A stretch of 64,000 nucleotides of DNA, taken from an uncultured Clostridia bacterium. Its GTDB lineage: Bacteria; Bacillota; Clostridia; TANB77; CAG-508. The stretch spans positions 9,367 to 73,366 of the forward strand of contig CALXWT010000002.1 in assembly GCA_944392445.1 (NCBI GenBank), read 5' to 3'. A program made the translations under genes and the position numbers. The notes below the pieces were generated by a model, which did not search any database, was not told the DNA's origin, and saw only the letters and a list, made by a program, of their open reading frames with translations. This document shows, one piece after another, positions 6,508 to 60,878 of the stretch (within the stretch, counting starts at the first letter, position 1; each line of letters opens with the position of its first letter).

Positions 6508-8373
6508 TTACTTATCTTTTTTTATTTCTTCATATCGTTTTATTTTCATTGTAGTTGTTTTAACGAAATCATCATGTTTGATTTCCAATTTTTTAATAGC
6601 TTTGTATGAGGTTAATTCTTTGTTTACTTCTTTTACCTTATCCCAAATTATTTTATATACTTCTTCCTCACTTAAATCTTTTCTATATTTTTCTTCTATT
6701 ACCTCATAATTTGGAATAACTTTAGCAGTAATTATTAGCTCTTTTTCTCCTTCTACTTCTTTACCATAAACCATGCATTCTTTTATTTCTGTATGTTTAG
6801 AAAGCATTAGTTCTATTTCTTCTGGATATATGTTTTTTCCGTTTTGTGTTACTATAACATTTTTACTTCTACCTGTTATATACAAGAAACCGTCATTATC
6901 CATATATCCAATGTCTCCCGAGTGGAACCATCTTTCTCCATTTTCTTCAAAAATTGCTTCTTTTGTAGCCTCTTCGTCCTCATAATATCCAAGCATTAAA
7001 GTCTTACTGCAAATTAGTACTTCTCCTTCTCCATTTTCGTTTGGATGGTCTATTCTTAATTTTGCTCCTACTACTGCTTTACCTGCAGAACCAACTTTTG
7101 TTTCAAAATCTGGTGTTAATGCAGCAATCGGTGCAGTTTCTGTTAATCCATATCCTTGTAAGAAAAGTATGCCAATATCTTCTACCCACTTTCCTATTTT
7201 AGCATCTATTGGTGCTGCTGCTGAAACTATTATTCTCAATCTTCCACCTAGATTTTCGTAAATTTCATTAAATACTTTTCTTTTTATATCCACGCCAACT
7301 ACTTTTAGTGCATTTGTTACATGAATCATTGAATTTACTAAACCGTCTTTTTTGCTCTTTTTGATGTTGGCATTTATTTTTCTATATAAGCTTTCAACAA
7401 GTAATGGCACAGTTAATAGTGCTGTTGGTTTTGTTTCTTGCAAGTCTGACACTATATGTTTTAAACCTTGGCACACACTAATAGATGCACCAATTCCGAA
7501 TGGTAGTAAAAATCCTATTGATGATTCATAAGTATGGTGTAATGGTAGTATTGACATTAACCTATCATCTGGTGTAAGTTTAACATATGCAGTTGCTGCA
7601 TTTACGTTTTGTGCTAAATTTCTATTGCATAGCATAACACCTTTTGCATTTGAAGTAGTTCCTGATGTAAATATTAAAACTTTAAACTCGTCAGGATCTA
7701 TTTCAATACTCATAAAACTATTATCTCCACCATTTACCAAAGCTTTTCCTTCTTCTATTAAATAATCTAAACCTACAAATCTTCCGTCTATTTCTTGGTC
7801 AGAATTCATTTGTATAAAATATTTCACATCTGGTAAGTTTTCTGATACTTTTTTTATAACGTCAGCTTTTTTTGTAGAAAATATTACTGCCGATGCTCTA
7901 GCTCTTTTTATAACATTTTCAATTTCATTTTCTGGTAATTCCTTATCTACAGGAACTGCAATTCCTGCACCACAAAGCATTGTCATGTATGATACATACC
8001 AATGGTGTGTGTTTTCTCCTATTATAACAATTCTTGTATCTTTTAAATTTAATTTTCTTGTTAATGCAGTTCCAAGTCCAATTACCTCATTTTTAAACTG
8101 GTTATATGTAATTTCTGTCCAATCACCTTTTGGATTAAATTTTTCTAATAAGAAAGTCCTATCTGCATATTCTTTTGAAGAATTAATAAATATTTCTTTT
8201 ACTGTTTCAAAAGAAGTTCCATCATAATTTTTAGTTCTCTTTTTCTTTTGATTTTCTTCTGCTTTCTTTACTTTTTCGTAATCCACTTTTACTTCATCGA
8301 TTTCATCAAGTTCCTTTAAATGAAACTTTGGAAATTTAAAATTTGGAACTTTAAAATCTTTTAATATTCTCAT
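6508..8373 (-). CDS. fadD: Long-chain fatty-acid--CoA ligase (AMP-binding enzyme family)
   Basis: 621 aa. AMP-binding motif FTSGTTSNAKGVML and C-terminal ...GRSKNVIVTQNGKNIYPEEIE... are present. Confidence 0.85.
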   Translation of the reverse strand: MRILKDFKVPNFKFPKFHLKELDEIDEVKVDYEKVKKAEENQKKKRTKNYDGTSFETVKEIFINSSKEYADRTFLLEKFNPKGDWTEITYNQFKNEVIGLGTALTRKLNLKDTRIVIIGENTHHWYVSYMTMLCGAGIAVPVDKELPENEIENVIKRARASAVIFSTKKADVIKKVSENLPDVKYFIQMNSDQEIDGRFVGLDYLIEEGKALVNGGDNSFMSIEIDPDEFKVLIFTSGTTSNAKGVMLCNRNLAQNVNAATAYVKLTPDDRLMSILPLHHTYESSIGFLLPFGIGASISVCQGLKHIVSDLQETKPTALLTVPLLVESLYRKINANIKKSKKDGLVNSMIHVTNALKVVGVDIKRKVFNEIYENLGGRLRIIVSAAAPIDAKIGKWVEDIGILFLQGYGLTETAPIAALTPDFETKVGSAGKAVVGAKLRIDHPNENGEGEVLICSKTLMLGYYEDEEATKEAIFEENGERWFHSGDIGYMDNDGFLYITGRSKNVIVTQNGKNIYPEEIELMLSKHTEIKECMVYGKEVEGEKELIITAKVIPNYEVIEEKYRKDLSEEEVYKIIWDKVKEVNKELTSYKAIKKLEIKHDDFVKTTTMKIKRYEEIKKDK

Positions 8374-19131: not shown

Positions 19132-19196
19132 ACTATCTATAACTTTAAGAATAGCTTTACAAATAATTAAATTCTTAAGGAAAGGAGTTTTATTTT

Positions 19197-19400
19197 TTAG
19201 CGCCTGGACACAGAGTTAAGCAATGCAAATAATAGATTTGTTGTAATTCTGCTAGCTTTTAGCAAAGTTCAAAGCACCTGTGTTGACGAGGTAGAGACTT
19301 ATCGAAAGATTCGGCGGATGGTCTCTTGGTACTAGATTACTACCATAAATATTAGTCAAAACCTTGCAGTGATGCAAGTATACAAAGCTAATAGAGTAGT
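19197..19400 (+). ncRNA. glmS ribozyme (GlcN6P-dependent self-cleaving riboswitch) in the glmS 5' UTR
   Basis: A^GCGCCTGGAC at the cleavage site. The conserved core gacgaggtagagacttatcgaaagattcggcggatggtctc closely matches the Bacillus glmS ribozyme core GACGAGGATGGAGGTTATCGAATTTTCGGCGGATGCCTCC. It sits directly upstream of glmS. The end coordinate is approximate. Confidence 0.85.
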
Positions 19401-19564
19401 CTTTATTTGTAATGCTTTCTTGAAATTAAATGCTAAGAAAAGCAATCTACACGCAATAATATGAATAATTATTAGCATAGTTTTATAGTTTTTTAGCACA
19501 AAAATGTGTAACTTATTAAAGTTTATTTAATAAAGGTACATATATGTTTTAAGGAGGTATTTTT

Positions 19565-21418
19565 ATGTGTGGTATTGTAGGATACGTTGGTAGCAAAAAA
19601 GCTACACCTATATTAATTGATGGTCTTTTATGTTTGGAGTACAGAGGTTATGACTCTGCCGGAATTGCAACTATAGAAAAAGATGTAATTAAGGTTATGA
19701 AGGATAAAGGTAGAGTAAATAACTTGTATAATTTGGATGGAATAAATGATTTAGAAGGAACTGTAGGTATTGCGCATACTAGATGGGCAACACACGGTAA
19801 ACCATCTAAAGAAAATTCTCATCCTCACTTGGACAATAGCAATACATTTGCAGTTGTTCATAATGGTATTATCGAAAATTATTCTGAACTAAAAGATTTT
19901 TTAAGTTTAAAAAGATATAATTTTATTTCTCAAACAGATACAGAGGTTATTCCTAATTTAATACATTATCATTATACAAACGGACCTGAATCTGTAATTG
20001 AGGATAATTATGAAAGATTTTTAACTGCTGTAAAGTCTGCCGTACAAGATTTAAAAGGAAGCTATGCAGTTGAGGTTATTTCCCCTCTATGCCCTGATGA
20101 GGTTATTGTTGTTAGAAAAGATAGCCCACTTGTTATAGGAAAGGGCACAGATGGAAATTATATAGCATCAGATATTCCTGCTATATTAAAGTACACCAAA
20201 GATTTTTATTTATTAGATGATAATGAATTTGCAGTAGTTACAGCTGATAAAGTTAAATTTTATGATAATAGTTTAACAGAGCATAACAAAGCTATTAAAA
20301 ATATTGAATGGGATGCAAATGCAGCTGGAAAAGATGGATATGAAGATTATATGCTTAAAGAAATTTTTGAACAACCAACAGCTATACGAGAAACAATCGG
20401 TTCAAGATTTCGTTTAGGCGAAAAATGTTCTTTTGATGATATAGAAATTTCTAAAGAATATTTAAGTAAAGTAAATAAAATATACATTGTTGCTTGTGGT
20501 ACAGCAATGCATGCTGGATTAACAGGTAAAACCTTAATAGAAAAACTTTGCAAAATTCCTACTGTTGTAGATATTGCATCAGAATTTAGGTACAGAGACC
20601 CACTTATTGATGAAAATACACTATGTATATATATAAGTCAATCTGGTGAAACTGCTGATACTATTGCTGCTTTAAAGCTTGCTAAGTCTAAAGGTGCTAA
20701 AACACTTGCAATCTCTAATGTTATAGGAAGTTCAATTACAAGAGAAGCTGATTATTCTATATATACTCATGCAGGTCCAGAAATTGCCGTTGCTTCTACC
20801 AAAGCATATACCTCACAAGTTGTACTAATTGCAATTCTTGCAATGTATTTTGCAGAAATATTAGGAACATGTGATGAAGCTTGCATAGAAGAGTTAAAGG
20901 CTGATTTAATAGACTTACCTTCTAAGGTAGAACAAATATTGGATAACACAGATGTAATTAAAACTTTTGCAAATAAAGTATATACAGAAAAAGATATGTT
21001 CTTTTTAGGTAGAGGTACAGATTATAATGTTGCTCTAGAGGGCTCTTTAAAATTAAAAGAGATAACATATATTCACTCTGAAGCAAATGCAGCTGGAGAA
21101 TTAAAACATGGTCCTATTGCACTTATAGAAAATGGTGTAACAGTTATAGGAATTATTACTGACGAGAAATTAGTTGAAAAATCTATTAGTAATATTCAAG
21201 AAGTTGTTACAAGAGGAGCTAAAACTTTAATTATTACAAATCAAATATTACCTAACAGCCATTTTGATTATGTAATAAATATTCCAAAGACTCCCCCTCT
21301 AATTTCGCCAATACTTTCTGTTGTTCCAATGCAACTTTTGTCTTACTATATTGCTAAGGCTAAGGGATTAGATGTAGATAAGCCACGTAACCTTGCTAAA
21401 TCGGTTACAGTAGAGTAG
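19565..21418 (+). CDS. glmS: Glutamine--fructose-6-phosphate aminotransferase (isomerizing)
   Basis: MCGIVGYVG... is the Ntn amidotransferase start. Two SIS domains follow, and the protein ends ...VTVE. Confidence 0.95.
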   Translation: MCGIVGYVGSKKATPILIDGLLCLEYRGYDSAGIATIEKDVIKVMKDKGRVNNLYNLDGINDLEGTVGIAHTRWATHGKPSKENSHPHLDNSNTFAVVHNGIIENYSELKDFLSLKRYNFISQTDTEVIPNLIHYHYTNGPESVIEDNYERFLTAVKSAVQDLKGSYAVEVISPLCPDEVIVVRKDSPLVIGKGTDGNYIASDIPAILKYTKDFYLLDDNEFAVVTADKVKFYDNSLTEHNKAIKNIEWDANAAGKDGYEDYMLKEIFEQPTAIRETIGSRFRLGEKCSFDDIEISKEYLSKVNKIYIVACGTAMHAGLTGKTLIEKLCKIPTVVDIASEFRYRDPLIDENTLCIYISQSGETADTIAALKLAKSKGAKTLAISNVIGSSITREADYSIYTHAGPEIAVASTKAYTSQVVLIAILAMYFAEILGTCDEACIEELKADLIDLPSKVEQILDNTDVIKTFANKVYTEKDMFFLGRGTDYNVALEGSLKLKEITYIHSEANAAGELKHGPIALIENGVTVIGIITDEKLVEKSISNIQEVVTRGAKTLIITNQILPNSHFDYVINIPKTPPLISPILSVVPMQLLSYYIAKAKGLDVDKPRNLAKSVTVE

Positions 21419-37547: not shown

Positions 37548-38276
37548 TTATTGTGCAACTACGTTTGTATTAGTATTATCTGTACTATTAGTATTATCTG
37601 TACTATTAGTATTGTCTGTACTATCTGCAGTGTCGTTAGTACCATCAGTTGTATTTTCATCTTCAGTTGTTCCACCAACAGTTGCTGTTGTATCTTCTAT
37701 ATTGATTCTAATTCCTTCTACAGTAAATGTTGCTTGTAAGTTATCTTCAGTACTAGGTGTTAAATGAAAATCATCTATTCTAAAATTAAGTTCACTATCT
37801 TCTTCTAATGCTGATACGAAGTCCATAATTGCTAGATATTGTCCTACTACTGTAAAGTCTAAATTCTTTGTAACTGAATCTCCAGCATCTCCAGTTAGAA
37901 CCTCCATTCTCATATTTACGCCTTCAGTTCTTGCATGTCTTCCAACTCTTACCCACAAATATTCAATGTTATATGTTTCTTGTGTACTTGCGGCAGTTAT
38001 TTCACTTTCGGTACTTACATTTGCCAAGTTATAATAGCTTGTTTTATTTGCTAATAATACCTCTATGTTTTCTTTTAATTCTGATTCTTTTGATTGTAAA
38101 TCACTTTTAATCTTTCTATTGGTCTCTTCTATTTCTGTTGTTAAATTATCATTTAGTTCAAAAATTCCTCCTACACTTAAAACATTAAGTGAACCTATTG
38201 ATAACCCTTGGGCGATGGTGAAATATGCCAGTACAATTAATAAGACTAATAAAATTGTAATTAATAATTTTCTCAT
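37548..38276 (-). CDS. pilO: PilO-like type IV pilus assembly protein with C-terminal (S/T)DNTN repeats
   Basis: N-terminal transmembrane segment then coiled coil, typical of PilO. The C-terminus is ...DTADSTDNTNSTDNTNSTDNTNTN. Confidence 0.55.
   Translation of the reverse strand: MRKLLITILLVLLIVLAYFTIAQGLSIGSLNVLSVGGIFELNDNLTTEIEETNRKIKSDLQSKESELKENIEVLLANKTSYYNLANVSTESEITAASTQETYNIEYLWVRVGRHARTEGVNMRMEVLTGDAGDSVTKNLDFTVVGQYLAIMDFVSALEEDSELNFRIDDFHLTPSTEDNLQATFTVEGIRINIEDTTATVGGTTEDENTTDGTNDTADSTDNTNSTDNTNSTDNTNTNVVAQ
37568..37630. repeat. 18-bp tandem repeat x3 (agtattatctgtactatt) encoding the STDNTN repeats
   Basis: Read directly from the sequence. Confidence 0.7.
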
Positions 38277-39892
38277 GGCAAATCCCCCTCTATAACTATT
38301 TTAACAAAGTCGCCTTGTTTTTCACCTTGTGTTGATACAACATTATCTAATATTCCATCTTCACTTAGTCTAGCTTTAAAATATCCAAGTTCATCATAGT
38401 ATTGTGATTGAGCATAAATTATAATGTGTCTATTATTATTGCTTGAAGTATTTTCTATTTCTGTTATTTGTACTGCTTGTGGTATACTAGAGGCAATTTG
38501 CATTAATAATGTTGGAATTGTTCCCTTTAAGCTTAAGTTGTCCTCTATTTGTGTATTAATATTTCTTAAATTATTCTCCATCTCTTGGTATTCGTTTGCT
38601 TTTTGTTTTACTCTATTTATATCGCTTTCCGCCATTGCAATTTGTGTATCTGTATATTGACTTACCGATTCTGTTTCTGCTATTTTTTCGCTTATTCTGT
38701 TATCCAAATATATAGCAAAGCCAGAATACAATATTGTAAGCATTAATACTCCAATAGTTCCTCTAAGTAGCCATCTTTCTGTTGCATCTAATTTACCTTT
38801 TAAGCTAACATCAATATTTAATTTTTTCTTGCTTTCTTTTTTGCCAGACCCTATATCTATTTTTAGCCAGTCTGGTATTTGGTCCGAAAAGCTTGGCTTT
38901 TTAAAGTTCATATTTTTTATTCCATAGCCCAATCCTTGCATTGCAACTGCTATAGCTGAATTTACTTCTATATAATCTTTAATGTTTATTTTTAAACTTT
39001 CTTTAATAAAATATGGCTTTAATATTTCACATTTTTTTCCTTGGAAAAATTCTTGGAAATATAAATCTATATTATTTACAACTGACATTGTTCCAGTTAT
39101 ATATATTTTTGAAAATTTTACTGTAGATGTAGTTACATAATCTTGAAGTTTTGTAACTATTTTGTATAATGTTGGCATTATATATTCTAAATACTCATTT
39201 TCTTCGTCCTGTAATTCTTTTCCCTCCATAGTATATATTGTTGTATTTTTGCAAATTTCATAAGCTTTTGAAAATGAATTTTCTTTTTTAGCAATTTTGT
39301 CTAAAATTTCCTCTGCGCCTTCTTCTAATTTGGTTACATTATATACTTTTTGATTAGTAATGGTTGTAATAGTTGTTTTATTTTCAATATTTACTATTAT
39401 TATATTTTCTTTTGGCTTTATTTCTGCAACATTTGCAATGCTCATACCAATCGGAGTAATCATAGATACTTTATTATCGCCTAATACCTGTAGTGATTTT
39501 GTAATTGATGATTTGTTTGAAGAAACATGAATTGCTTTCACTCTATCTTTGTCTTCAATTTCATTAGAAATAGCAAATCTAGTTTCAAAAGCATTTTTAT
39601 TTAGTTTTCTATCATAGCAATAAGATTCAAATTCAGTATCTACTGCTTTTTTTAAATCATTCTTATTTAATAGACTAAACATGTAAAAATAGTTGTATAT
39701 TTCTTCTGCCAAATTGATACTAATTGGTATATTGTAACTAAATGTTTCTGATACTATTTGTTCTATTGCCTCTCCAATTTTTTCATAAAATTTAACACCG
39801 AAAGCCTCTACTTTTAGATTCTCTCGATCTTTAGTTACTTTTGCATATTTAATTACATTGTTTTCTATAAATAATCCTAAACAGCTTGACAT
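38273..39892 (-). CDS. pilMN: PilM-PilN fusion protein (actin-like PilM domain + transmembrane/coiled-coil PilN domain); start at the ATG after AAGGAG
   Basis: MSSCLGLFIENNVIKYAKV... starts the PilM-like ATPase fold (about 330 aa). Then ...RWLLRGTIGVLMLTILYSGFAIYLDNRISEKIAE... is the transmembrane plus coiled-coil PilN part. Confidence 0.75.
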   Translation of the reverse strand: MSSCLGLFIENNVIKYAKVTKDRENLKVEAFGVKFYEKIGEAIEQIVSETFSYNIPISINLAEEIYNYFYMFSLLNKNDLKKAVDTEFESYCYDRKLNKNAFETRFAISNEIEDKDRVKAIHVSSNKSSITKSLQVLGDNKVSMITPIGMSIANVAEIKPKENIIIVNIENKTTITTITNQKVYNVTKLEEGAEEILDKIAKKENSFSKAYEICKNTTIYTMEGKELQDEENEYLEYIMPTLYKIVTKLQDYVTTSTVKFSKIYITGTMSVVNNIDLYFQEFFQGKKCEILKPYFIKESLKINIKDYIEVNSAIAVAMQGLGYGIKNMNFKKPSFSDQIPDWLKIDIGSGKKESKKKLNIDVSLKGKLDATERWLLRGTIGVLMLTILYSGFAIYLDNRISEKIAETESVSQYTDTQIAMAESDINRVKQKANEYQEMENNLRNINTQIEDNLSLKGTIPTLLMQIASSIPQAVQITEIENTSSNNNRHIIIYAQSQYYDELGYFKARLSEDGILDNVVSTQGEKQGDFVKIVIEGDLP

Positions 39893-40147
39893 TTTATTCT
39901 CCTTCGTTTTTATTTGCACCATTATTATATTTTGCAAAATGTAACAAAATAATACTTGTATTTTTTTCCTTTTTTAAAATTTTCTACAATATAATCACAG
40001 TTCTGTTATTATTTTATCTTTTTTTATAAAAAAGTCAATATAAATCATTATAATTTAATATAAATGTAATATTTTCGTAATATTTTTGTAATATTTGTTT
40101 TTAAATTTTATAAAAAAAAAGAATATAATCCTTTTTTCGACATTCTA

Positions 40148-40999
40148 TTATACTAAAGAAAAATATAATAGAACTATTATTCCTAATATAATTCTGTAGT
40201 ATCCAAATACTTTAAAGTCATGTTTTTTAATATAATCCATTAAAAATTTAATTACAAACATTGATATAATAAAGGATACTAACATTCCTACTATTAATAT
40301 TGCTATCTCTGCAGTTGTAAATGCTAATCCAAATTTCAATAATTTTAATAAACTTGCTCCAAGCATTGTTGGAATTGCTAAGTAAAATGTAAATTCTGCT
40401 GCATTTGGTCTTGATAGTCCAATTAATAAGCCTCCAATAATTGTTGCACCTGAACGTGAAGTTCCTGGGAATATTGCAGCTAATAATTGGAATATTCCTA
40501 TTATTACCGCATCTTTATATGTAATTTCAGAGCTTTTATCTTTACCACCTTTTTTATTTTTATTCCAGTTCTCTATTACAATAAAAGCTACTCCAAAAAC
40601 AATTAAAGCAATTGCTATGCATATTGGATTATAAAATAATGCTTCAAAAACATCATCAAACAATATTCCTATAATAGCTGCAGGTATGCATGCAACCAAT
40701 ATTTTGCCCCACAAATTCATAATGTTTTTATCAAAAAAAGATAAAACTCCTTTTGATTTAATTGCTTTTTCTTTATTTTTTGTAAATGGCCATATTTGCT
40801 TAAAATATATTAAAATAACAGCAAAAATTGCTCCTAACTGAATAACTACTTGAAACATTGACCAGAACTCTGGTGAAACATTTTCAAATTTTATAAATTG
40901 CTCTGCTAAAATTAAATGTCCCGTACTACTAATAGGTAACCATTCTGTTATACCTTCTATTATTCCAAATATAATAGATTTTATAATGTCTAAAAACAT
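40148..40999 (-). CDS. uppP: Undecaprenyl-diphosphatase
   Basis: ...EGITEWLPISSTGHLIL... and ...PGTSRSGATIIGGLLIG... are UppP/BacA motifs. Confidence 0.9.
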   Translation of the reverse strand: MFLDIIKSIIFGIIEGITEWLPISSTGHLILAEQFIKFENVSPEFWSMFQVVIQLGAIFAVILIYFKQIWPFTKNKEKAIKSKGVLSFFDKNIMNLWGKILVACIPAAIIGILFDDVFEALFYNPICIAIALIVFGVAFIVIENWNKNKKGGKDKSSEITYKDAVIIGIFQLLAAIFPGTSRSGATIIGGLLIGLSRPNAAEFTFYLAIPTMLGASLLKLLKFGLAFTTAEIAILIVGMLVSFIISMFVIKFLMDYIKKHDFKVFGYYRIILGIIVLLYFSLV

Positions 41000-41096: not shown

Positions 41097-42053
41097 TTAA
41101 ATTTTTATTAATTTATCAATTGTTTCTTTTATATACTTTCCTGCTGTTCTTGGCATTTCTTTTCCCGGAATTCCTAGAGCAGTTATTACTTTTAGTCCAA
41201 GCTTATTTGCACTTTCTTTGTTAATTCCTCCTGGAGCAGATGCCACATCTATTATTAAAACATTTTTATTAAATAATTTTAGTTGTTCTTCTTCTAATAT
41301 TATTTGTGGTACTGTATTAATTAATATATCAATCTTGTCTGCAAAATTTGATATTTCCGTATATCGTAATGGTATATATCTTTTTTCTCTTATCCAAGCT
41401 AAATCGCTTTCTTTTCGAGCTACGCAATACACATTGGCTCCTAATTTATTAAATCTGTCACATAATATCTTGCCAATTCTTCCAAAACCACATACAAGCA
41501 CATTGCTTTCATGTATTGTTTCTTCTCTTTCTTCTATTGCGAGCTTAATTGTGCCTTCAACCGTTGGAATTGCATTTAAAATAGTAAGTTCTTCTACTTT
41601 TAGCAAATCTACTAAATCTATATTTTCTATTTTTTTTGTTTCTTTTTCGATATAGTAGTTTTTTGGAATTCCACCCGCAAAAAATATTTTACTTGAAGTT
41701 TCATTAAAAAGTTTGTTTTTTAATTCTTCCAGTTTAATTTCTTCATTTGCAAATGGAGCATTTACAGTAATTTTGTCTTTTGTAAAAGGCATGCCACTTA
41801 CAATACAATTTGAATTTGCAATAACTTCTTCTAAGCTGTTGCATAAAAAAATGTTGTTAAACTTTTCATTGCTTCTATGTACTTCATCATTTATATTTTT
41901 ATTATGTACTTTTGCCTCTGTCTGTTTGCTATAGCCTTTTTCTTTATCAAAATATTTTTCTAAACCATAAGTATATACGTTATAGTTATCTTTTGCATAC
42001 ATTTCTGCTAATCTTATAATACGCAAATCTCCACCTATTATAGATATATTCAT
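41097..42053 (-). CDS. dpaA: Dipicolinate synthase subunit A (SpoVFA/DpaA)
   Basis: ...NAIPTVEGTIKLAIEE...VCGFGRIGK...LGANVYCVARK...IDILINTVP...LIIDVASAPGG...ALGIPGKEMPRTAG... aligns block-by-block with B. subtilis SpoVFA (match recalled from memory). Confidence 0.75.
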   Translation of the reverse strand: MNISIIGGDLRIIRLAEMYAKDNYNVYTYGLEKYFDKEKGYSKQTEAKVHNKNINDEVHRSNEKFNNIFLCNSLEEVIANSNCIVSGMPFTKDKITVNAPFANEEIKLEELKNKLFNETSSKIFFAGGIPKNYYIEKETKKIENIDLVDLLKVEELTILNAIPTVEGTIKLAIEEREETIHESNVLVCGFGRIGKILCDRFNKLGANVYCVARKESDLAWIREKRYIPLRYTEISNFADKIDILINTVPQIILEEEQLKLFNKNVLIIDVASAPGGINKESANKLGLKVITALGIPGKEMPRTAGKYIKETIDKLIKI

Positions 42054-44865: not shown

Positions 44866-45058
44866 GTTTTTTTACCTCCTGTCTCAGTAGGTTGTTTTTA
44901 CTAAGTGAAACTTTTCCACTTAGTATCGTACCGAATGCACTTTTGCATTCAACTATATTATACCATAAAACAGTGAAAATATCAAAAGAAGAAAAGCTCT
45001 AACTCTAAGCTAAAACCTTCCTTCTTTATATTTTTATTTATGTTATTATTGAACCAAT

Positions 45059-47398
45059 TTAATTATTTTTCATCAACTTTTCTTCTGCTCTTTGCACTGC
45101 TTCTCTCTCATCCCAGAAGTATTGCACTCCTTTTATTTCTTGATATTGTTCGTGTCCTTTGCCTATTAAAAGTATAATATCTCCCTCTTGTGCATTTTTC
45201 ATTGCATATTCTATTGCTTCCTGTCTATCATCTATTGTTATATATTTTCCATTGCTTCTATTTAAGCCTGTTATAATATCGTTATTTATAGATTCCATTT
45301 CTTCAAAACGTGGGTTGTCCTCTGTAAGGATAGTAAGACCTGCATATTTTCCAGATATTTCTCCCATATCAAATCTTCTATCTCTTGCTCTGTTTCCTCC
45401 ACCACCAAAGATGCATACTATTCTTTTTGGCTTGTACTCCATAATTGTTTCCATCAAATTTGTCATCTCATCTTCATTATGAGCATAATCTATAATTAAC
45501 TTGTACTTATCGTTTGAAACTGCAAGCTCCATTCTTCCTTTTACGTATGCTGTTTCTAATGCTTTTTTCATTGAATCTACCTTTAGCCCCAATTCATTTG
45601 CTATTGTTACAGCACATAAGGCATTATATACAGAGAATCTACCTGGGATTGCGACTTCAAATTTATCATTTACTTTTCCTGTTACATCAAAGCCCATTCC
45701 TAAGAACTTGTCTGTCATAATAAATTTGATGTTTTCTGCTCTTAAGTCTACATTTTCTGAATTTATACCAAACTTTATTATATCGCAAGTATGGTTTTTA
45801 GTAACGTTTTCCCAATTCTTATCATCTACATTTATTATTCCAGTTTTGCATTTTTGGAATAACAAACTTTTGCAATACATATATTCTTCAAAGCTTTTGT
45901 GCTCATTTGGTCCTATATGCTCTTTAGAAATATTTGTAAATACCCCATAGTCAAATGTAAATCCATCTACTCTATGCATTTTTAGTCCTTGTGAAGACAC
46001 TTCCATTATTGCATATTTGCAACCCTCTTCTACCATTTCTCTAAATAGCTTTTGGATTTCATAATTTTCTGGTGTAGTATTATGAAGAGTTATTTTTCTC
46101 TTTCCTATAAATGCACCAATTGTGCCAATTAGCCCAGCCTTTTCCCCATTTTCTTCAATCATTTTCTTTAAAATAGTTGAAGTTGAAGTTTTTCCTGCTG
46201 TTCCTGTAATTCCTACAACAGTTAGCTCTTTTGCTGGATATTTAAAATATGCTGATGAGATTTCTGCCATTGCTTCTCTTGAAGATTTTACCTTTATTAC
46301 TGTAACATCTTCATTAGGAATATCTATGTCTTTTTCTACCACTAATACTTTTGCACCCTTTTCTATTACATCCGGTATATATTTATGTGAGTCTGATGTA
46401 GAACCAACTTTTGCTATATACATATCGTTTGGCTCTACTTTTCTAGAATCGTCTTTAATGTCTGAAATATCTACATCTAGGCTTCCTTTTACAAGCTCAT
46501 AATCCACATTTTGTAACAAATCTTGCAATTTTGTAGTTCTATATTTGTTTATTATATCGTCTACATCAATTTCTGACTCGAATACTGTATGTGATGGGCC
46601 TTTCATAAACATTTTTCCTGTTTCTTCGTCCCAGTTAGTTTCTAGTATTCCACCTATTTGGTGAACACTTACTTTTCTATCGCATCTACCTGTTAAAACT
46701 GCTGCAACTGTAGCAGTACAACAACCTGTACCACAACCTATTGTTTCTCCTGTTCCTCTTTCCCATTCTCTCATTTTTATATTGTTTCTATCTATTACTT
46801 GGGCAAAAGTTACATTTGTTTTGTTTGGGAACAAGTCTATTTTATACTCAATAGCTTTTCCGTATTTTTCTACATCAAAATTATCTACATCATCTATAAA
46901 CATTACACAATGAGGATTTCCCCACGATACTGCAGTAATTTTAAAAGTTCTGTCTAGTATTTTTACCTCTTGCTCTACAAATTCTTTCAAGTTTGTATTT
47001 ACTGGTATTAATTTTGTATCTAATACTGGCTTTCCAATATTTGCTTCAATATTAACTGCTTTTCCATTTTCTACAGTTAATTTAACATGTTGAATTCCAC
47101 CAAGTGTTTCTATTTTTAGTTCTGTTTTATCTGTTAGTTTGTGGTCATATACATATTTACTTAAAGACCTTAAAGCATTGCCACACATTTCTCCTTCTGT
47201 TCCGTCTGGATTGAACATTCTCATTCTAAAATCTGCCACATCTGATTTGCAAATTAGCACTAGTCCATCTGAACCTACTCCAAAGTGCCTGTTGCTTATA
47301 TATTTTGCAAGCTCGTGCACATTATTTATTTTTTGATTTATTGCATCTATATATACGTAGTCATTGCCATAGGCTTGCATTTTTGTAAATCTTGTCAC
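45059..47398 (-). CDS. Fusion of diaminopimelate epimerase (DapF, N-terminal) with a MurE-type Mur ligase (C-terminal; carries the DNPR meso-DAP specificity motif)
   Basis: N-terminus MTRFTKMQAYGNDYVYID...GNPHCVMF...GTGCCTA... is DapF. C-terminus ...VVGITGTAGKTSTS...DYAHNEDEM...ILTEDNPRFE...GGGGNRARD... has Mur ligase motifs. Single 779-aa ORF. Confidence 0.8.
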   Translation of the reverse strand: MTRFTKMQAYGNDYVYIDAINQKINNVHELAKYISNRHFGVGSDGLVLICKSDVADFRMRMFNPDGTEGEMCGNALRSLSKYVYDHKLTDKTELKIETLGGIQHVKLTVENGKAVNIEANIGKPVLDTKLIPVNTNLKEFVEQEVKILDRTFKITAVSWGNPHCVMFIDDVDNFDVEKYGKAIEYKIDLFPNKTNVTFAQVIDRNNIKMREWERGTGETIGCGTGCCTATVAAVLTGRCDRKVSVHQIGGILETNWDEETGKMFMKGPSHTVFESEIDVDDIINKYRTTKLQDLLQNVDYELVKGSLDVDISDIKDDSRKVEPNDMYIAKVGSTSDSHKYIPDVIEKGAKVLVVEKDIDIPNEDVTVIKVKSSREAMAEISSAYFKYPAKELTVVGITGTAGKTSTSTILKKMIEENGEKAGLIGTIGAFIGKRKITLHNTTPENYEIQKLFREMVEEGCKYAIMEVSSQGLKMHRVDGFTFDYGVFTNISKEHIGPNEHKSFEEYMYCKSLLFQKCKTGIINVDDKNWENVTKNHTCDIIKFGINSENVDLRAENIKFIMTDKFLGMGFDVTGKVNDKFEVAIPGRFSVYNALCAVTIANELGLKVDSMKKALETAYVKGRMELAVSNDKYKLIIDYAHNEDEMTNLMETIMEYKPKRIVCIFGGGGNRARDRRFDMGEISGKYAGLTILTEDNPRFEEMESINNDIITGLNRSNGKYITIDDRQEAIEYAMKNAQEGDIILLIGKGHEQYQEIKGVQYFWDEREAVQRAEEKLMKNN

Positions 47399-47456
47399 TG
47401 TTAATTCCTCCTATTTATGTTTACTAACGTAGAAATTGGGGACTGTCCCCAATTTC

Positions 47457-48635
47457 CTATTCCATAGCTTGTTTCAAATCTGCAATAATATCATCTGCAT
47501 CTTCTATTCCTACAGATAATCTAAGTAATGTATCTGTAATTCCTAAAGCATTTCGTTTCTCTTCCGAAATTTCTGTATGTGTTCTACTTACAGGGTGAGT
47601 GATTAAACTTTCTACTCCACCTAAGCTTTCTGCAAATGTTATTAGTTTTAGGTTTGCCAATATTTTATTTACAGTTTCCATACTGTCTACTCTAAATGAT
47701 ATCATACCACCAAAGCCTGTGGTTTGTTTTTTAGTTACTGCATAGTCTTTATGGTCCTCAAAACCTACATAATATACTTGCTCAACCTTTGGTTCTTTAC
47801 GAAGCCAATTTGCTACCTTCATTGCATTTTCTGCGTGCTTGTCCATTCTTAATGCAAGTGTTTTTAGTCCTCTTAGCATTAGCCAAGAGTCCATTGGTCC
47901 TAAACCTGCTCCATAAATATACATTTGAATTTCTAGCTTTTCTCCAATTTGACTATCTTTTACAACAACTATTCCTCCTAATACATCATTATGACCTGCT
48001 AGGTATTTTGTTCCACTATGAATTACAATATCTGCACCTAATGTAAGTGGTCTTTGGAAGTATGGTGTTAAGAATGTATTATCTACAACAACTAGTGCAC
48101 CTATTTCGTGTCCTATTTTAGATATTTTTTCAATATCTGCAACTTTCATCATTGGGTTTGTTGGAGTTTCTATAAATATCATTTTTGTATTTTTCTTTAT
48201 AGTCTTTTTTAGTAAGTCTAAATCTGATAAATCTATGCTATCATATTCTACTCCATTTACAGTTAATACTTCGTTTACCTCTCTAAAAGTTCCACCATAT
48301 ATATCGTCTGACATAATTATGTGGTCGCCTGGTTTAAGTAGTGAAAATACTAGTGTAGTTGCTGCCATACCAGAATTTACAGCAAATGCTCTTGTTCCTT
48401 CCTCTAAAATTGTCATTGTTTTCTCCAATTCTTCACGAGTTGGGTTTATGCATCTAGCATAATTGTATGGGTCTTTTTTCTCAATTCCACTATGCTTAAA
48501 GGTAGCAGTTTGGTATATTGGGAAGCTTATTGAACCAGTTACTGGATCTACACCTAATGCACCGTGTACTACTTTTGATGCTAATTTTAAATTTTCCTTT
48601 CTGTCAAAATTTTGATAATCTTTTGAATCTTTCAT
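47457..48635 (-). CDS. Cys/Met-metabolism PLP-dependent enzyme (cystathionine beta-lyase / methionine gamma-lyase family)
   Basis: ...PIYQTATF... N-terminus and the ...SGTKYLAGHNDVLGG... PLP-lysine region are present. Confidence 0.8.
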   Translation of the reverse strand: MKDSKDYQNFDRKENLKLASKVVHGALGVDPVTGSISFPIYQTATFKHSGIEKKDPYNYARCINPTREELEKTMTILEEGTRAFAVNSGMAATTLVFSLLKPGDHIIMSDDIYGGTFREVNEVLTVNGVEYDSIDLSDLDLLKKTIKKNTKMIFIETPTNPMMKVADIEKISKIGHEIGALVVVDNTFLTPYFQRPLTLGADIVIHSGTKYLAGHNDVLGGIVVVKDSQIGEKLEIQMYIYGAGLGPMDSWLMLRGLKTLALRMDKHAENAMKVANWLRKEPKVEQVYYVGFEDHKDYAVTKKQTTGFGGMISFRVDSMETVNKILANLKLITFAESLGGVESLITHPVSRTHTEISEEKRNALGITDTLLRLSVGIEDADDIIADLKQAME

Positions 48636-55366: not shown

Positions 55367-55828
55367 TCATCTTTTAATAAACAAACTCTTTATCTTATTT
55401 AATATTCTTTTAAAGATATTCTCTTTATATTCTACAATTTGTTTTTCATTATTATTTGTCTTTACTTCATTCTCATTTAATTTTGTTGTTTTGTTTATGC
55501 TTTTATTTGCAAATACATCAGTATTATACATCTGCTGTTTTTTTAGTTCGTTTTTCTGTCTCGCTTCATTTTGCATTTTTATAATTTTCGTTCTTTGCTC
55601 TGGTGTTGCTAGATAATCTCTAAACAAATTAAATAGTATTGCTTTTGTTTCTGGAAGCATTGGTTGGTCTTTTAATTCTAATTCATCATCTAAGAAATAC
55701 TCATATTCCTTATTTCTGTTAGTATCTAATGTTTCTATTACTTCGGGAGGAATTTTATTGTACTCTTCTTCATCTAAATCTTGCAAAATTGTATAAACTT
55801 CTGTATATGCATTTCTACGGTTGTTCAC
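55367..55828 (-). CDS. Hypothetical protein (153 aa) immediately downstream of, and overlapping, the giant helicase gene
   Basis: Clean ORF. A 5' remnant of a paralog sits after the second helicase gene (61800-61936). Confidence 0.5.
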   Translation of the reverse strand: MNNRRNAYTEVYTILQDLDEEEYNKIPPEVIETLDTNRNKEYEYFLDDELELKDQPMLPETKAILFNLFRDYLATPEQRTKIIKMQNEARQKNELKKQQMYNTDVFANKSINKTTKLNENEVKTNNNEKQIVEYKENIFKRILNKIKSLFIKR

Positions 55829-58800
55829 CTATATCCTCCCCTCTCTTTTGTTCTCTTTGCTTTACTAATTCTTGTAATTCTGTATATGCTCTATCTGCAT
55901 TTTCCTGGTCTGTTAATGAACTAATTGAAGCTTCTACTATTTCTTTTGCTGTGCGATTTCTTTTTGGTTTTGGCTCTATTCCATATTGTCTCAATGTAGC
56001 TATTTTTTCTCTGTATTCTTCTGGTACATTTTCTATTGGTTTCCCTACATATTCTTGTAATATTTTATATTCGTTTGATTTTATCCACCTATTGTACAAA
56101 TTCACTTCTTCTTTTTGCTCTTCGGTCATTTGGTCTACTGTTAAGTTTTTCCTTTTTCCATTTTCTCCTTTTTCAGAGAAAGCACCTTTCATTATTCGTC
56201 CATTTGCTTCTATAAATTCTATTACCTGTTCATATGTTGTTTTTTTCGGTTCTAATCCATGGTCTCTCAATGTTGCTATTTTTTCTCTATATTCTTCTGG
56301 CACATTTTCTATTGGTTGCCCTGCATATTCTTGCAATATTTTATATTCGTCTGAAATATGCCACCTTTTGCACAACTTTGCTTCTTTTTTTTGCTCTTCG
56401 GTCATTTGATCTCTTGTTAATTGTTTCCTTTTTCCATTTTCTCCTTTCTCATAGAAAGCACTGTTCACTATTCGTCCATGTTCTTCTATAAATTCTATTA
56501 CCTGTTCATATATTGGTTTTTCTGGTTCTAAGCCATATTGCCTCAATGTAGCTATTTTTTCTCTGTATTCTTCTGGCACATTTTCTATTGGTTGCCCTGC
56601 ATATTCTTGCAATATTTTATATTCGTTTGAGTTCAGCCACCTTTTGTACAATCTTACTTCTTCTTTTTGCTCTTCGGTCATTTGGTCTACTGTTAATTTT
56701 TTTCTTTTTCCATTTTCTTCTTTTTCAGAGAAATAGCCGTTCATTATTCGTCCATTTGCTTCTATAAATTCTATTACCTGTTCATATATTGGCTTTTCTG
56801 GTTCCAATCCATATTCTCTTAATATAGTTATTTTGTCTCTGTATTCTTCTGGCACATTTTCTATCGATTGTCCTGCATATTCTTGCAATATTTTATATTC
56901 GCCTGAATGAATCCACCTTTTGTACAATCTTGCTTCTTCTTTTTGCTCTTCGGTCATTTGGTCTACTGTTAATTGTTTCATTTTTCCATCTTCTCCTTTT
57001 TCAGAGAAATAGCTTTTCATTATTCGTCCATTTGCTTCTATAAATTCTATTACCTGTTCATATGTTGGTTTTTCTGGTTCTAAGCCATATTGCCTCAATG
57101 TAGCTATTTTTTCTCTGTATTCTTCTGGCACATTTTCTATAGGTTGCCCTGCATATTCTTGCAATATTTTATATTCGTCTGATTTATACCACCTAGCATA
57201 TAAATTTACTTCTTCTTTTTGCTCGTCAGTCATTTGGTCTACTACTAATCTTTTGCCATCTATTTTGAATGAACTTCTCATTATTTGCCCATGTTTTTTT
57301 ATAAATTCTATTACCTGTTCATATGTTGTCTTTTTCGGTTTACCATCAACTTCATCTTCTAACTCCACAAAATCTTTCAATAGCCCTATAAGTTCAAATG
57401 GTCCAACACTTTTTCCTGAAAAAACTCTTTCTTGTGTTTCTCCACTCCTTACTATTCTGTCTGGTAAATCTATCTGCCATAAATCTATTTGACTTCCTAG
57501 TCTTATTATTTGCTCTATCTCTTCTACTTGCTTTTCATTTAATCCTTCAAATTCTTGTTCTAAATATCCTTTGTATTTATTTTGTATTTCTTTTAATACT
57601 CTCGCATATCCTGTTTCTTCTTTATCTGTGCTATTTATGTCTGGTAAAACTCCATCATGTCTTTGCGTCCAATCTAATATAAGACCTAACATTTGTATGT
57701 CGTCTTTCTCTGTTATTTCATTATCCCAATTTACTTTTATTGTGTTGTTTACTAAGTCTATTACTACTGGCCTATCCTCATCTTTTGTTGGTTTATCTGG
57801 GTTTTCTGAATATATTACTCTTCCTAGTTGTTGCAAGTATAGTATTCGTGAATTTTCATCTAGTGGTCTTAGCCATATTATTCCATCTAGCTTATCTAAA
57901 TGTAACCCTTCATTTGCTTTATTCATCACTAGCATAAATTCTGTTTCTTCTGTATTGCTATTTTTGAATTCTTCTAACCTTCTAGCATTTTCTTTGTCTC
58001 CATATTCTCCAAGCATTGAATGAAAATTAGGCTTTATCCCTGAACCTTTAAAGTATTCTGCTATTTGTTTTTCATAATCTTCTATTTTTGTTTTTCCTTT
58101 TTTTCTTCCTATTACATTTCCATCTTCATCTTCCAAATCTTCTAAAACCGGTAAAAATACTATATATTTGCCACCTTTTTTCACATTTGCTTGTAGAATT
58201 TGAGGTATTCCCTCTGCATTTTCTACATTTCTTCTCAAAGACTCATATTCTTCTAATTTTTCGTTTCTATCTTGTATATCTTCTAATTGGTCTATTTTAT
58301 CTTTTAATTCATCTAAACTTCCATCCATCTTTAAACTATATGCGCAACTTACAAGCTTAGGATTTACCACTAACCCCATTCTTATTGCATTTGTTAAACT
58401 CATATTCATTGCAATGTGTTTTCCATTTACTGCTTCTCTATTTGTGTAACCTAGCCTTTGTGCTATTTCATTTGCCATATCTATTCCGTCTGCATCTCTT
58501 CTTGGGGTTGCTGTTAGTCCTAATACTTTCGTACTTTCTGGTTGATTATCTAGTAATGTGTTTAATCTATCTCCCCATTCTTTTGCTCCTGTTCTATGTA
58601 ACTCATCTAGTACTACAAAGCCATATTGTTTGTTTATTGTGGCTTTTCCACCTCTTGCAAGTAAACTCGAGTATGTTGCAAATTTTAGTTTTGGAAATAC
58701 ATCTTTTATTATATCATCTTTACTTCTTCGAATTGTATTTACTGGTCCGTGAATATATTTTATAATATTGTCTTTCATTTGCTCTAATATCTCATTTTGT

Positions 58801-60878
58801 GGTGCTAAGTATAATATTTCTTCATTTTGGTGTTCCATCATTTCGGCTAAAGCAACAAAACTCTTTCCTCCACCTGTTGGTACTATTACTGATGTAAATC
58901 TGTTTTCTTGCAATATTTCATCTGCTCTGTCTTTTGCTCTTTGTTGGTATGGTCGTAGTTGTATTCCTGTTCCTTGTACATCATAATATCCTAAAAATCT
59001 TTCTATTCTCTCTATTGATAAATTTTGACTATAGATTGATTCATTTTGTATTTGTCTATTTTTACTTATGTTTTCTTCATTTATGCCTCTTGTATTTCTT
59101 GCATCATCTCTATTTCCAGTTTGTCTATTATTTTCACCAATACTATTAACATATTCTGCTATCATTCTGTCATATTGTTCTAATCTTTTTGCTTTTACTG
59201 TTTCTGGTGTGTCATTTTCGGTAATTTCAAAATCATTACTTCTTGTTACCATATTTAGTAGAATTGTTGGAATAGCTTCTCTTGTGATGCCTTGTGCTTC
59301 TAATTTTTGATATAGCTCTACACAATATTCTGCTTGTATACGGTTAATTAAGTTATTCCTTTCTGCTGGTGTAAATTCTTCTATTCCTATTTTTGACCAG
59401 TCATATAGTGAAAATATTGCTTCTGCATAATATTCTTCTTTGCTTATTTGCTCATTTCTTTGTGTTTTTGAAAATGTGCTACTCATTATATCTCTTACAT
59501 TTGATAGCCCACCATTTTCCATTATTTCTATTTGCTCTGCTTCTGTTAAGTCTTTTATTTTGTTTATTAGTTCTGCTTCTTCTCCTCTTAAATCCAATGA
59601 AATTGACTCACTAAGTTTAACTCCCCTATTGCTTTGCCTTGTAAGTATTTCTGGCTCTATTCTAAAACCATTGTCTGATATATATTGTATAATTTCTCTG
59701 TATCTTGGATTATTTCCTGTTATTTGCTCCAATATTCTTGCTAGTTCTTTTGCATTTGACTGCGACCTTGCTAAATAGAACAAATTCTTTACTATCGAAT
59801 TTGCTTGTCCATATTCCACTTTTCCGTCTGTTAAGTTATACATTTCTTCTATGCTTATGTTGTCTCGTAAGCTATATTCTCTTTCAAGTATGCTGTTTGC
59901 TGGTATTTCTATTGTTGCATCTGTTCCAGCTATTCCTATTGTTTTACCTTCACTCGCGAAGTTAATTACTTCTTTTTTTAGATCATCTACTATCTGCCTA
60001 TCTTGCCCATCAACCTGTTGCAATAGTGCAAATATATCTACTATTTCTTTTGGTACATCTATTATCTCGTCTCCTTCTATATCTCCATAGTGAACTACCT
60101 CTAATGATGAAAACGCATTTCCTATTGTTTGCACCAATAAATTATTATTTGCTGTATGTGGAATTACAGGCGCCATTCCTCCTACTCTTTCAAGCAATGT
60201 TAGTTTTGCAATTATCTTATTCTTCTCTAATGATTGTTCCCCGTTTAATGCTTGATAACTACTAATTCTCGCAATTGGTGCCCTATATGTTATTCCTTTT
60301 CTTAATTTTGCTTTACTTGGGTCTATTGGCTCTGCTGATGTATACCTTGTCTCTATTGCTCTTTTTAATTCTTCTTCTGTTTTACTATTATCTATTTCAC
60401 TTAGTGTTTCTTTCAATTTGCTATCAGCTGGCATTAAAGAAATGTATTCTTCTATTCTCTTTGCCACTTCTTCTAGCATATATTGCCCTGCATTTATGGT
60501 CTTTTCGCCCAATTCTCTTTTTGGCACTTTTACCATTATATATCTATCTTTATAACTTCCTCTTCCATAGGAAATAGACACATTACTATTGCTTGAAAGT
60601 GATATACAGTTTGTATCCTTTCTGTAATGCATCTTTATGTGGTCATATACTTGCTCTAAACTTATTTCTGAATCTTTATTATATTTTGGTGCTTCATTTT
60701 CTGGTTTTTCTTCATATCTTTCTCTATCTGTTCTTATTCGTGCAATATTTCCGTTTTCATCTAGCACTGTTCCGTTTTCTATATCTTCATTATCTGCCAT
60801 ATTTAGTGCACGAATAAAGTAATAGTTTTCTTCATCTTCTATTATATTAAAATTTTCTATACCTAATACATTTTCCAT
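55815..60878 (-). CDS. Giant (1687 aa) multidomain protein: roughly 600-aa N-terminal region of unknown function, central SF2 DExH helicase, and six C-terminal ~92-aa tandem repeats (helicase-associated-domain-like)
   Basis: Helicase motifs VPTGGGKSF (I), VVLDELHR (II), LGLTATP (III) and QQLGRV (VI) are present. Six in-frame repeats of TYEQVIEFIEANGRIM...EYAGQPIENVPEEYREKIATLRQYGLEPEKP follow. Confidence 0.8.
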   Translation of the reverse strand: MENVLGIENFNIIEDEENYYFIRALNMADNEDIENGTVLDENGNIARIRTDRERYEEKPENEAPKYNKDSEISLEQVYDHIKMHYRKDTNCISLSSNSNVSISYGRGSYKDRYIMVKVPKRELGEKTINAGQYMLEEVAKRIEEYISLMPADSKLKETLSEIDNSKTEEELKRAIETRYTSAEPIDPSKAKLRKGITYRAPIARISSYQALNGEQSLEKNKIIAKLTLLERVGGMAPVIPHTANNNLLVQTIGNAFSSLEVVHYGDIEGDEIIDVPKEIVDIFALLQQVDGQDRQIVDDLKKEVINFASEGKTIGIAGTDATIEIPANSILEREYSLRDNISIEEMYNLTDGKVEYGQANSIVKNLFYLARSQSNAKELARILEQITGNNPRYREIIQYISDNGFRIEPEILTRQSNRGVKLSESISLDLRGEEAELINKIKDLTEAEQIEIMENGGLSNVRDIMSSTFSKTQRNEQISKEEYYAEAIFSLYDWSKIGIEEFTPAERNNLINRIQAEYCVELYQKLEAQGITREAIPTILLNMVTRSNDFEITENDTPETVKAKRLEQYDRMIAEYVNSIGENNRQTGNRDDARNTRGINEENISKNRQIQNESIYSQNLSIERIERFLGYYDVQGTGIQLRPYQQRAKDRADEILQENRFTSVIVPTGGGKSFVALAEMMEHQNEEILYLAPQNEILEQMKDNIIKYIHGPVNTIRRSKDDIIKDVFPKLKFATYSSLLARGGKATINKQYGFVVLDELHRTGAKEWGDRLNTLLDNQPESTKVLGLTATPRRDADGIDMANEIAQRLGYTNREAVNGKHIAMNMSLTNAIRMGLVVNPKLVSCAYSLKMDGSLDELKDKIDQLEDIQDRNEKLEEYESLRRNVENAEGIPQILQANVKKGGKYIVFLPVLEDLEDEDGNVIGRKKGKTKIEDYEKQIAEYFKGSGIKPNFHSMLGEYGDKENARRLEEFKNSNTEETEFMLVMNKANEGLHLDKLDGIIWLRPLDENSRILYLQQLGRVIYSENPDKPTKDEDRPVVIDLVNNTIKVNWDNEITEKDDIQMLGLILDWTQRHDGVLPDINSTDKEETGYARVLKEIQNKYKGYLEQEFEGLNEKQVEEIEQIIRLGSQIDLWQIDLPDRIVRSGETQERVFSGKSVGPFELIGLLKDFVELEDEVDGKPKKTTYEQVIEFIKKHGQIMRSSFKIDGKRLVVDQMTDEQKEEVNLYARWYKSDEYKILQEYAGQPIENVPEEYREKIATLRQYGLEPEKPTYEQVIEFIEANGRIMKSYFSEKGEDGKMKQLTVDQMTEEQKEEARLYKRWIHSGEYKILQEYAGQSIENVPEEYRDKITILREYGLEPEKPIYEQVIEFIEANGRIMNGYFSEKEENGKRKKLTVDQMTEEQKEEVRLYKRWLNSNEYKILQEYAGQPIENVPEEYREKIATLRQYGLEPEKPIYEQVIEFIEEHGRIVNSAFYEKGENGKRKQLTRDQMTEEQKKEAKLCKRWHISDEYKILQEYAGQPIENVPEEYREKIATLRDHGLEPKKTTYEQVIEFIEANGRIMKGAFSEKGENGKRKNLTVDQMTEEQKEEVNLYNRWIKSNEYKILQEYVGKPIENVPEEYREKIATLRQYGIEPKPKRNRTAKEIVEASISSLTDQENADRAYTELQELVKQREQKRGEDIGEQP
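55960..57340. repeat. In-frame tandem array, about 276 bp x 6, within the giant helicase gene
   Basis: ctattacctgttcatat recurs near 56221, 56491, 56771, 57041 and 57311. Protein repeats are 85-95% identical. Confidence 0.8.

Follow-up and report, generated by a model that had tools for sequence, protein, structure and literature searches.

The window analysed here, a 64,000-nucleotide stretch of DNA from an uncultured Clostridia bacterium (contig CALXWT010000002.1 of assembly GCA_944392445.1), carries on its minus strand one uninterrupted gene in which a complete diaminopimelate epimerase (DapF) is joined to a complete MurE, the Mur ligase that adds meso-diaminopimelate (meso-DAP) to the peptidoglycan precursor. 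The gene originated from adjacent dapF and murE genes, recurs in independent genomes and is under purifying selection in both halves, and the fusion adds a new type to the chimeras already known among peptidoglycan-precursor (Mur) enzymes. We consider it quite probable that its product is a bifunctional DapF-MurE enzyme derived from merged neighbouring genes, probably with a housekeeping role, acting by 1:1 co-expression and proximity.

The fused gene, its domains and its junction

The first-pass annotation had described a single open reading frame (ORF) of 779 amino acids uniting a complete DapF with a MurE-type ligase, and the ORF listing, Pfam, NCBIfam and the sequence motifs all agree with that description. 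On the translated protein, Pfam recovers two stretches of DAP_epimerase (1.1e-52), followed by the N, M and C domains of Mur ligases. The ORF covers 2.3 kb in DNA with a guanine-plus-cytosine content of roughly 30-34%, and the E-values of its domains run from 1e-53 to 1e-151; both its length and these E-values far exceed chance expectation. The cysteine and DNPR motifs that had been named were located as well, with CGN at residue 72, CGTG at 222 and DNPR at 694, and a P-loop, GTAGKT, is present at residue 399. The gene, its parts and its borders are the following:

45059-47398, minus strand: DapF-MurE fused gene, complete, 779 amino acids, GTG start (ORF listing, Pfam, NCBIfam)
47407-47412, minus strand: Shine-Dalgarno sequence AGGAGG, 8 nt 5' of the GTG start, read from the sequence
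46568-47398, minus strand: DapF half, residues 1-277, two DAP_epimerase-fold domains (TIGR00652, structure alignment, invariant residues)
47183-47185, minus strand: codon of catalytic Cys72, CGN motif
46733-46735, minus strand: codon of catalytic Cys222, CGTG motif
46529-46567, minus strand: linker, residues 278-290, DDIINKYRTTKLQ (junction alignments, column identity, predicted local distance difference test (pLDDT))
45059-46528, minus strand: MurE half, residues 291-779 plus stop codon, Mur ligase N, M and C domains (NF001126, alignments, fold match)
46187-46204, minus strand: P-loop GTAGKT, residues 399-404, ATP-binding GxxGKT/S of the middle domain
45308-45319, minus strand: DNPR motif, residues 694-697
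44985-45027, minus strand: terminator-like hairpin, 20-pair stem with T-rich tail, 32 nt past the stop codon

The hairpin beyond the stop codon probably marks the end of the transcription unit. A promoter scan gave 27 matches against 28.3 expected from shuffled sequence, and since matches are no more frequent than in shuffled sequence, no promoter is claimed. Near the unit that the fusion forms with the upstream gene for a pyridoxal phosphate (PLP) enzyme, described below, no riboswitch or leader RNA was matched in Rfam, the matches across the window being the glmS ribozyme and two tRNAs only.

The DapF half reaches 263.5 bits against the DapF equivalog TIGR00652 (cut-off 114.65), with residues 3-277 aligned to profile positions 2-268 of 270. 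Its two PF01678 stretches correspond to the two pseudo-symmetric domains, one catalytic cysteine in each, and in a residue-level structure alignment Cys72 and Cys222 match the cysteines of Bacillus anthracis DapF (2otn). In 25 fused proteins, 90 residues of this half are invariant, including N12, N63, C72-G73-N74, N161, N195, E213, R214 and C222. A fold search of the Protein Data Bank (PDB) matched DapF structures with template modelling (TM) scores to the target of 0.84-0.90. Against NF038284, the bifunctional DapF/glutamate racemase, the fusion scores 98.1 bits with a cut-off of 350, so that it is not a member of that family.

The MurE half contains all three expected domains (PF01225, PF08245 and PF02875) and exceeds the cut-offs of both relevant profiles, with 502.9 bits over residues 290-771 for NF001126, the meso-DAP MurE equivalog (cut-off 373), and 441.1 bits for TIGR01085 (cut-off 257.3). 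MurE structures were matched in the fold search with a TM score to the target of about 0.8. The P-loop residues T398-G399-T400, G402 and K403 are unchanged in 29 sequences, as is the DNPR motif, which lines up with the DNPR of Mycobacterium tuberculosis MurE (2wtz), where the L-Lys enzyme of Staphylococcus aureus has DNPA and the Thermotoga maritima enzyme DDPR. The first-pass annotation had called DNPR the established determinant of meso-DAP specificity. As a mark of the meso-DAP class the motif stands; as a determinant it is less exclusive, since D,L-lanthionine is accepted too by the DNPR enzymes from E. coli and Anabaena (PMC12681378). DNPR is thus compatible with meso-lanthionine as a substrate.

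Junction alignments resolve the linker into the old C-terminal tail of DapF, remnants of the spacer and the old N-terminus of MurE minus its Met. Unfused MurE proteins start with MK(N/K)LK(E)IL, and the aligned stretch of the fusion, ...TTKLQDLL, comes after a DapF tail reading ...FESEIDVDDIINK. The linker is short (about 10 residues), its length differs by up to 3 amino acids among fused relatives, never with a stop, and it is the least conserved segment of the protein, with a mean column identity of 0.56 versus 0.71-0.83 in the domains. The junction DNA at nt 46529-46567, previously estimated to lie near 46550-46600, reads through with no stop and no change of frame. AlphaFold2, run with 29 homologues, folded each half with confidence (mean pLDDT 86.8) but gave the full-length protein a predicted TM score (pTM) of 0.66 and a linker pLDDT of 63-72, as against a pTM of 0.88 for the MurE half alone with those same homologues; the uncertainty therefore lies mostly in the placement of DapF relative to MurE. 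These models suggest that the linker is a flexible tether rather than part of a fixed DapF-MurE interface. No solved structure spanning both halves was found by sequence or by fold, and the PDB fold search returned MurE and DapF structures separately.

Recurrence, origin and distribution

One genome per GTDB species was sampled, which yielded 272 stretches encoding a relative, of which 79 loci were kept and their frames re-derived. A single ORF runs over both halves in 32 of these loci, separate and adjacent dapF and murE genes in that order are found in 44, and the other 3 have murE without dapF. Many independent studies contributed to the fused loci, with human, chicken, rabbit and mouse among the hosts, and two of these loci lie in HiFi assemblies, namely OZ007016.1 (circular, 1.57 Mb) and OZ006978.1. 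Among 5.8 billion protein clusters, the same four Pfam domains were found together in more than 100 clusters, defined at 90% identity, at 53-96% identity. Between the window's gene and its fused relatives, the pairwise ratio of nonsynonymous to synonymous substitution rates (dN/dS) lies at 0.03-0.10 in the DapF half and at 0.07-0.19 in the MurE half, and both halves are under purifying selection. Considering this recurrence, the low dN/dS values and the invariant catalytic residues together, the fusion is a real and selected gene. An assembly or sequencing artefact, with a lost stop codon or a frameshift wrongly merging two genes, might be suspected for some isolated fused proteins that have odd junctions and rest on a single contig each (P0105, which has an aberrant DapF C-terminus, and the singleton P0107), but for the window this explanation is effectively refuted: its junction type is seen in dozens of independent assemblies, the two HiFi long-read ones included, the linker varies in sequence and length and yet never holds a stop, selection on both halves contradicts it, and the frameshift or stop at the junction that the first-pass annotation had named as the observation to look for occurs in none of the 32 species-level assemblies.

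The two-gene relatives have dapF and murE in the same order and the same orientation as the halves of the fusion. In many of them (L035, L036, L037, L043, L044, L048, L059, L062 and others) the two genes share one frame and are kept apart by no more than one stop codon and a few spacer codons; such loci are one point mutation short of a read-through fusion. The junctions of these split, Lachnospiraceae-type loci lie at about 6830-6900 of the locus. We propose that the fusion arose where the PLP enzyme gene, dapF and murE stand together as a conserved unit, in which loss of the stop codon and short spacer between the co-oriented neighbours would have given one polypeptide. In a neighbour-joining tree of the concatenated halves, which is indicative only, the fused state prevails in one clade of uncultured Clostridia, and an unfused subclade (L024, L026, L052, L054-56 and L061) is nested within it. 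Beside unfused neighbours stand three isolated fused proteins whose junctions differ, P0105, P0107 and P0092, the first two of which rest on a single contig each and are to be treated cautiously. Given the separate junction types and the nested unfused subclade, the boundary between fused and split states has been crossed more than once.

When 1.84 billion representatives at 50% identity were searched exhaustively with HMMER, 57,434 relatives emerged at E <= 0.001. Among the best 150 of these 57,434, P0092 (776 amino acids, 1268 bits) is the only representative matched across both halves, and the remaining matches are to one or the other enzyme by itself (MurE or DapF) or to longer proteins. 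The architecture therefore does not extend beyond one lineage and the close relatives of that lineage. No DapF was present in the longer MurE proteins that were scanned, which were of the types MurE-MurF, MurE-FemAB and MurE with an aminotransferase-fold domain. The representative search also brought up two unusual MurE fusions, one with a FemAB-family domain (P0175, 933 amino acids) and one, P0283, that is taken up below. The cultured or named Clostridia that were recovered (Diplocloster agilis and Lachnospiraceae bacterium G11) lack the architecture and keep two genes; the objection foreseen in the first-pass annotation, that it might be common in annotated Clostridia, does not refute the reading.

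Full-text searches returned no description of a DapF-MurE fusion, with the string 'DapF-MurE' in 0 papers, and the fusion is apparently undescribed in the searchable literature. The earlier suggestion that it had not been described thus holds as far as papers are concerned; in sequence databases, by contrast, the fusion is not rare in its own clade and the more than 100 protein clusters are already deposited, unnamed. A 2023 survey of natural Mur chimeras, the broadest one, lists the types MurE-MurF, MurC-Ddl, MurC-MurB, MurG-MurC, MurD-FtsW and MraY-MurG; the words 'DapF' and 'epimerase' appear nowhere in it, and unidentified species were excluded (PMC10214165), which explains why DapF-MurE is missing from it. 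An essential-gene paper on Clostridioides difficile has dapF and murE as separate genes. The properties of a chimera are all present in the fusion, namely an uninterrupted ORF, two complete enzymes and recurrence in independent genomes, and it falls below the cut-offs of the families NF008896 (MurE-MurF; 400.7 versus 1023) and NF008897 (MurF-alanine racemase).

One of the closest known systems is the MurE-MurF chimera of Bordetella pertussis (PDB 8F5D), in which MurE is likewise joined to the enzyme of an adjacent step from a neighbouring gene, and which has been read as evidence of a cytoplasmic complex for peptidoglycan precursors (PMC10214165). There, however, the partner is a Mur ligase placed at the C-terminus of MurE and held by a fixed hydrophobic interface (PMC10214165), whereas here it is a cofactor-independent epimerase at the N-terminus, with no fixed interface predicted. 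MurC-Ddl (Chlamydiae and Firmicutes) and MurF-alanine racemase (NF008897) similarly combine a Mur ligase with the maker of a building block that contains a D-centre, although MurC-Ddl joins steps that are not consecutive (PMC10214165), while the product of the epimerase is the direct substrate of the ligase in DapF-MurE. The same pair of enzymes is associated in M. tuberculosis, where DapF bound only MurE among the Mur synthetases tested by protein-fragment complementation (PMC3605390), but there as separate proteins from separate loci and here covalently. The stand-alone DapF and MurE of Lachnospiraceae and other Clostridia are orthologous to the fusion, with 45-84% identity per half, and have the same gene order and the same PLP gene upstream, but are two polypeptides. 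The chlamydial bifunctional DapF/glutamate racemase also has the DapF fold and contributes in a second way to the supply of peptidoglycan precursors, but in that case one domain set carries two activities, with no fusion (PMC5885031).

Likely function and alternative readings

In the function that we propose, the N-terminal half would convert LL-diaminopimelate to meso-diaminopimelate by a two-base mechanism using Cys72 and Cys222, and the C-terminal half would add meso-DAP to UDP-MurNAc-L-Ala-D-Glu at the expense of ATP. The fusion would thereby enforce 1:1 co-expression and hold the producer of meso-DAP beside its consumer in cell-wall synthesis, by proximity and not through a sealed channel. 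Since the linker is short, poorly conserved and probably flexible, proximity and co-expression are the most likely mode. Meso-DAP is the branch point of lysine and peptidoglycan synthesis, and at this point proximity would favour flux into peptidoglycan. Most likely the organism relies on the fusion as its housekeeping MurE and DapF: the gene lies in ordinary chromosomal sequence, and a local tblastn search of the 64-kb window, and of 390 kb on the flanks of the 32 fused loci, found neither another DapF nor another Mur ligase.

Several points weigh against this proposal. Both enzyme activities are deduced from sequence for all members of the family. The copy search covered the window and flanks, and a separate canonical murE or dapF may lie elsewhere in the genome. 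The unfused subclade nested among fused relatives shows that the fusion can be dispensed with or undone, and any selective benefit of it may therefore be small. Finally, the AlphaFold2 comparison uses a shallow alignment of 29 sequences and pTM only, and could miss a real interface.

The last of these points bears on true channelling, in which DapF would be docked on MurE by a fixed interface and meso-DAP handed from one active site to the other. The DapF and MurE reactions are consecutive and the linker is short; moreover, the M. tuberculosis enzymes interact (PMC3605390) and the MurE-MurF chimera has a fixed hydrophobic interface (PMC10214165). Yet the drop in pTM from 0.88 for MurE alone to 0.66 for the full-length protein, the low pLDDT of the linker, and its poor conservation and variable length all speak for a tether, and, by sequence position, DapF is joined to domain 1 of MurE while the DNPR diamino-acid site lies in domain 3. 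We therefore regard channelling as unlikely.

The first-pass annotation had also raised the possibility of a paralogous ligase, for instance one for a secondary polymer; such a ligase might also act on a specialised wall such as the spore cortex, with the housekeeping murE elsewhere. The limited reach of the copy search leaves room for this, and within a few kb of the fusion there are bacA and a sporulation gene of the DpaA-like type. Against it, the MurE half exceeds the cut-off of the meso-DAP MurE equivalog; by synteny and orthology the fusion corresponds to the one dapF-murE pair that many Lachnospiraceae and other Clostridia carry; its unfused relatives, at 70% identity, are MurE proteins of the ordinary kind, about 490 amino acids long; and no second copy turned up across the approximately 450 kb sampled. 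In addition, complete contigs or genomes with the fusion are only about 1.57-1.75 Mb, a size that makes paralogues less likely. Taken together, this makes a paralogous role improbable.

A further alternative starts from the upstream gene, which encodes a PLP enzyme of Cys/Met metabolism:

47457-48635, minus strand: Cys/Met-metabolism PLP enzyme gene, 392 amino acids, PF01053 at 507 bits, 58 nt from the fusion
47432-47456, minus strand: intergenic hairpin GAAATTGGGGAC-AGT-CCCCAATTTC without T tail, between the PLP gene and the fusion

No terminator-like site was found between the two genes, which probably share an operon. The enzyme falls below all NCBIfam equivalog cut-offs, the best being MccB-like cystathionine gamma-lyase (487.7 versus 594), and its nearest solved relatives are cystathionine gamma-lyase, gamma-synthase and beta-lyase. 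A homologue with 57-99% identity stands directly upstream of dapF in about 73 of the 79 loci, fused or not, often with a spacer of only 2-30 nt, and this synteny extends to distant unfused Lachnospiraceae and to all three independently fused lineages. Hairpins in the spacer differ in sequence between lineages, are missing from many loci and are not conserved. Long, near-perfect ones are frequent all the same and are seen in L004, L005, L008, L009, L015, L020, L025 and the window, the longest stems, in L004 and L025, reaching about 28 bp; the spacer hairpins may be terminators, attenuators or inserted palindromic elements.

From this arrangement one could argue for a thioether module, in which the PLP enzyme, DapF and MurE jointly handle lanthionine or cystathionine. 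Either the PLP enzyme would make lanthionine, which DapF epimerises and MurE incorporates into the wall, or it would destroy cystathionine or lanthionine and so spare a promiscuous DNPR-type MurE from misincorporation. The widespread synteny across distant lineages with short spacers and the lack of a specific equivalog for the PLP enzyme fit this reading, and because DNPR-type MurE takes D,L-lanthionine (PMC12681378), making or removing thioether analogues of DAP is conceivable. However, synteny by itself is no proof of a shared pathway, and the DapF half scores strongly as a DapF equivalog. The analogy to a lanthionine epimerase in Fusobacterium nucleatum is weakened because FN1732, the sole 'DapF' for which that activity had been proposed, proved to be a histidine racemase (PMC11602996). 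We thus judge joint thioether handling to be very improbable, and think it equally doubtful that the three genes form a module controlling the diamino acid at position 3 of the stem peptide. If the thioether reading were true, many gut Clostridia would have a dedicated thioether-handling step in peptidoglycan precursor synthesis. One candidate for a direct link between a C-S lyase and MurE, P0283 (849 amino acids; MurE with a PatB-like C-S lyase/aminotransferase-fold domain), was rejected as evidence, being known from one 3.9-kb contig only, as a singleton for which no homologue shares the architecture.

Nothing is overturned by a bifunctional DapF-MurE, because fusing consecutive pathway genes is common. 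It does serve as a 'Rosetta stone' for the DapF-MurE association, otherwise known from a two-hybrid-type assay in M. tuberculosis only, and it brings an enzyme from outside the Mur/Ddl set into the known range of peptidoglycan-precursor chimeras. It is also a natural construct for asking whether meso-DAP passes from its producer to the wall ligase, and it displays a route to fusion, with many relatives one stop codon away and fused and split states within one clade. For the annotation and metabolic reconstruction of these abundant uncultured gut Clostridia, the gene should be counted as both dapF and murE.

Remainder of the window

Outside the fused locus, the window is ordinary chromosome, with MreB, LexA, Obg, GlmS, several aminoacyl-tRNA synthetases, RNase J, a type IV pilus, BacA, a pyrophosphatase and lactate dehydrogenase. 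Other features are:

41097-42053, minus strand: DpaA-like gene (dipicolinate synthase subunit A), NF006162 at 270 bits versus a cut-off of 261
40148-40999, minus strand: bacA, directly after the DpaA-like gene
19188-19403, plus strand: glmS ribozyme, 89 bits, at the standard position upstream of glmS
19565-21418, plus strand: glmS, with SIS and GATase domains
55815-60878, minus strand: 1687-amino-acid protein, ResIII/DEAD helicase domains, weak match to TarS-linker
61923-63995, minus strand: 690-amino-acid ORF with no Pfam family at E <= 1e-8
38273-39937, minus strand: 554-amino-acid ORF with no Pfam or NCBIfam family

The DpaA-like gene has no neighbouring dpaB, and the pair of dpaA-like gene and bacA is kept downstream of the fusion in many relatives.

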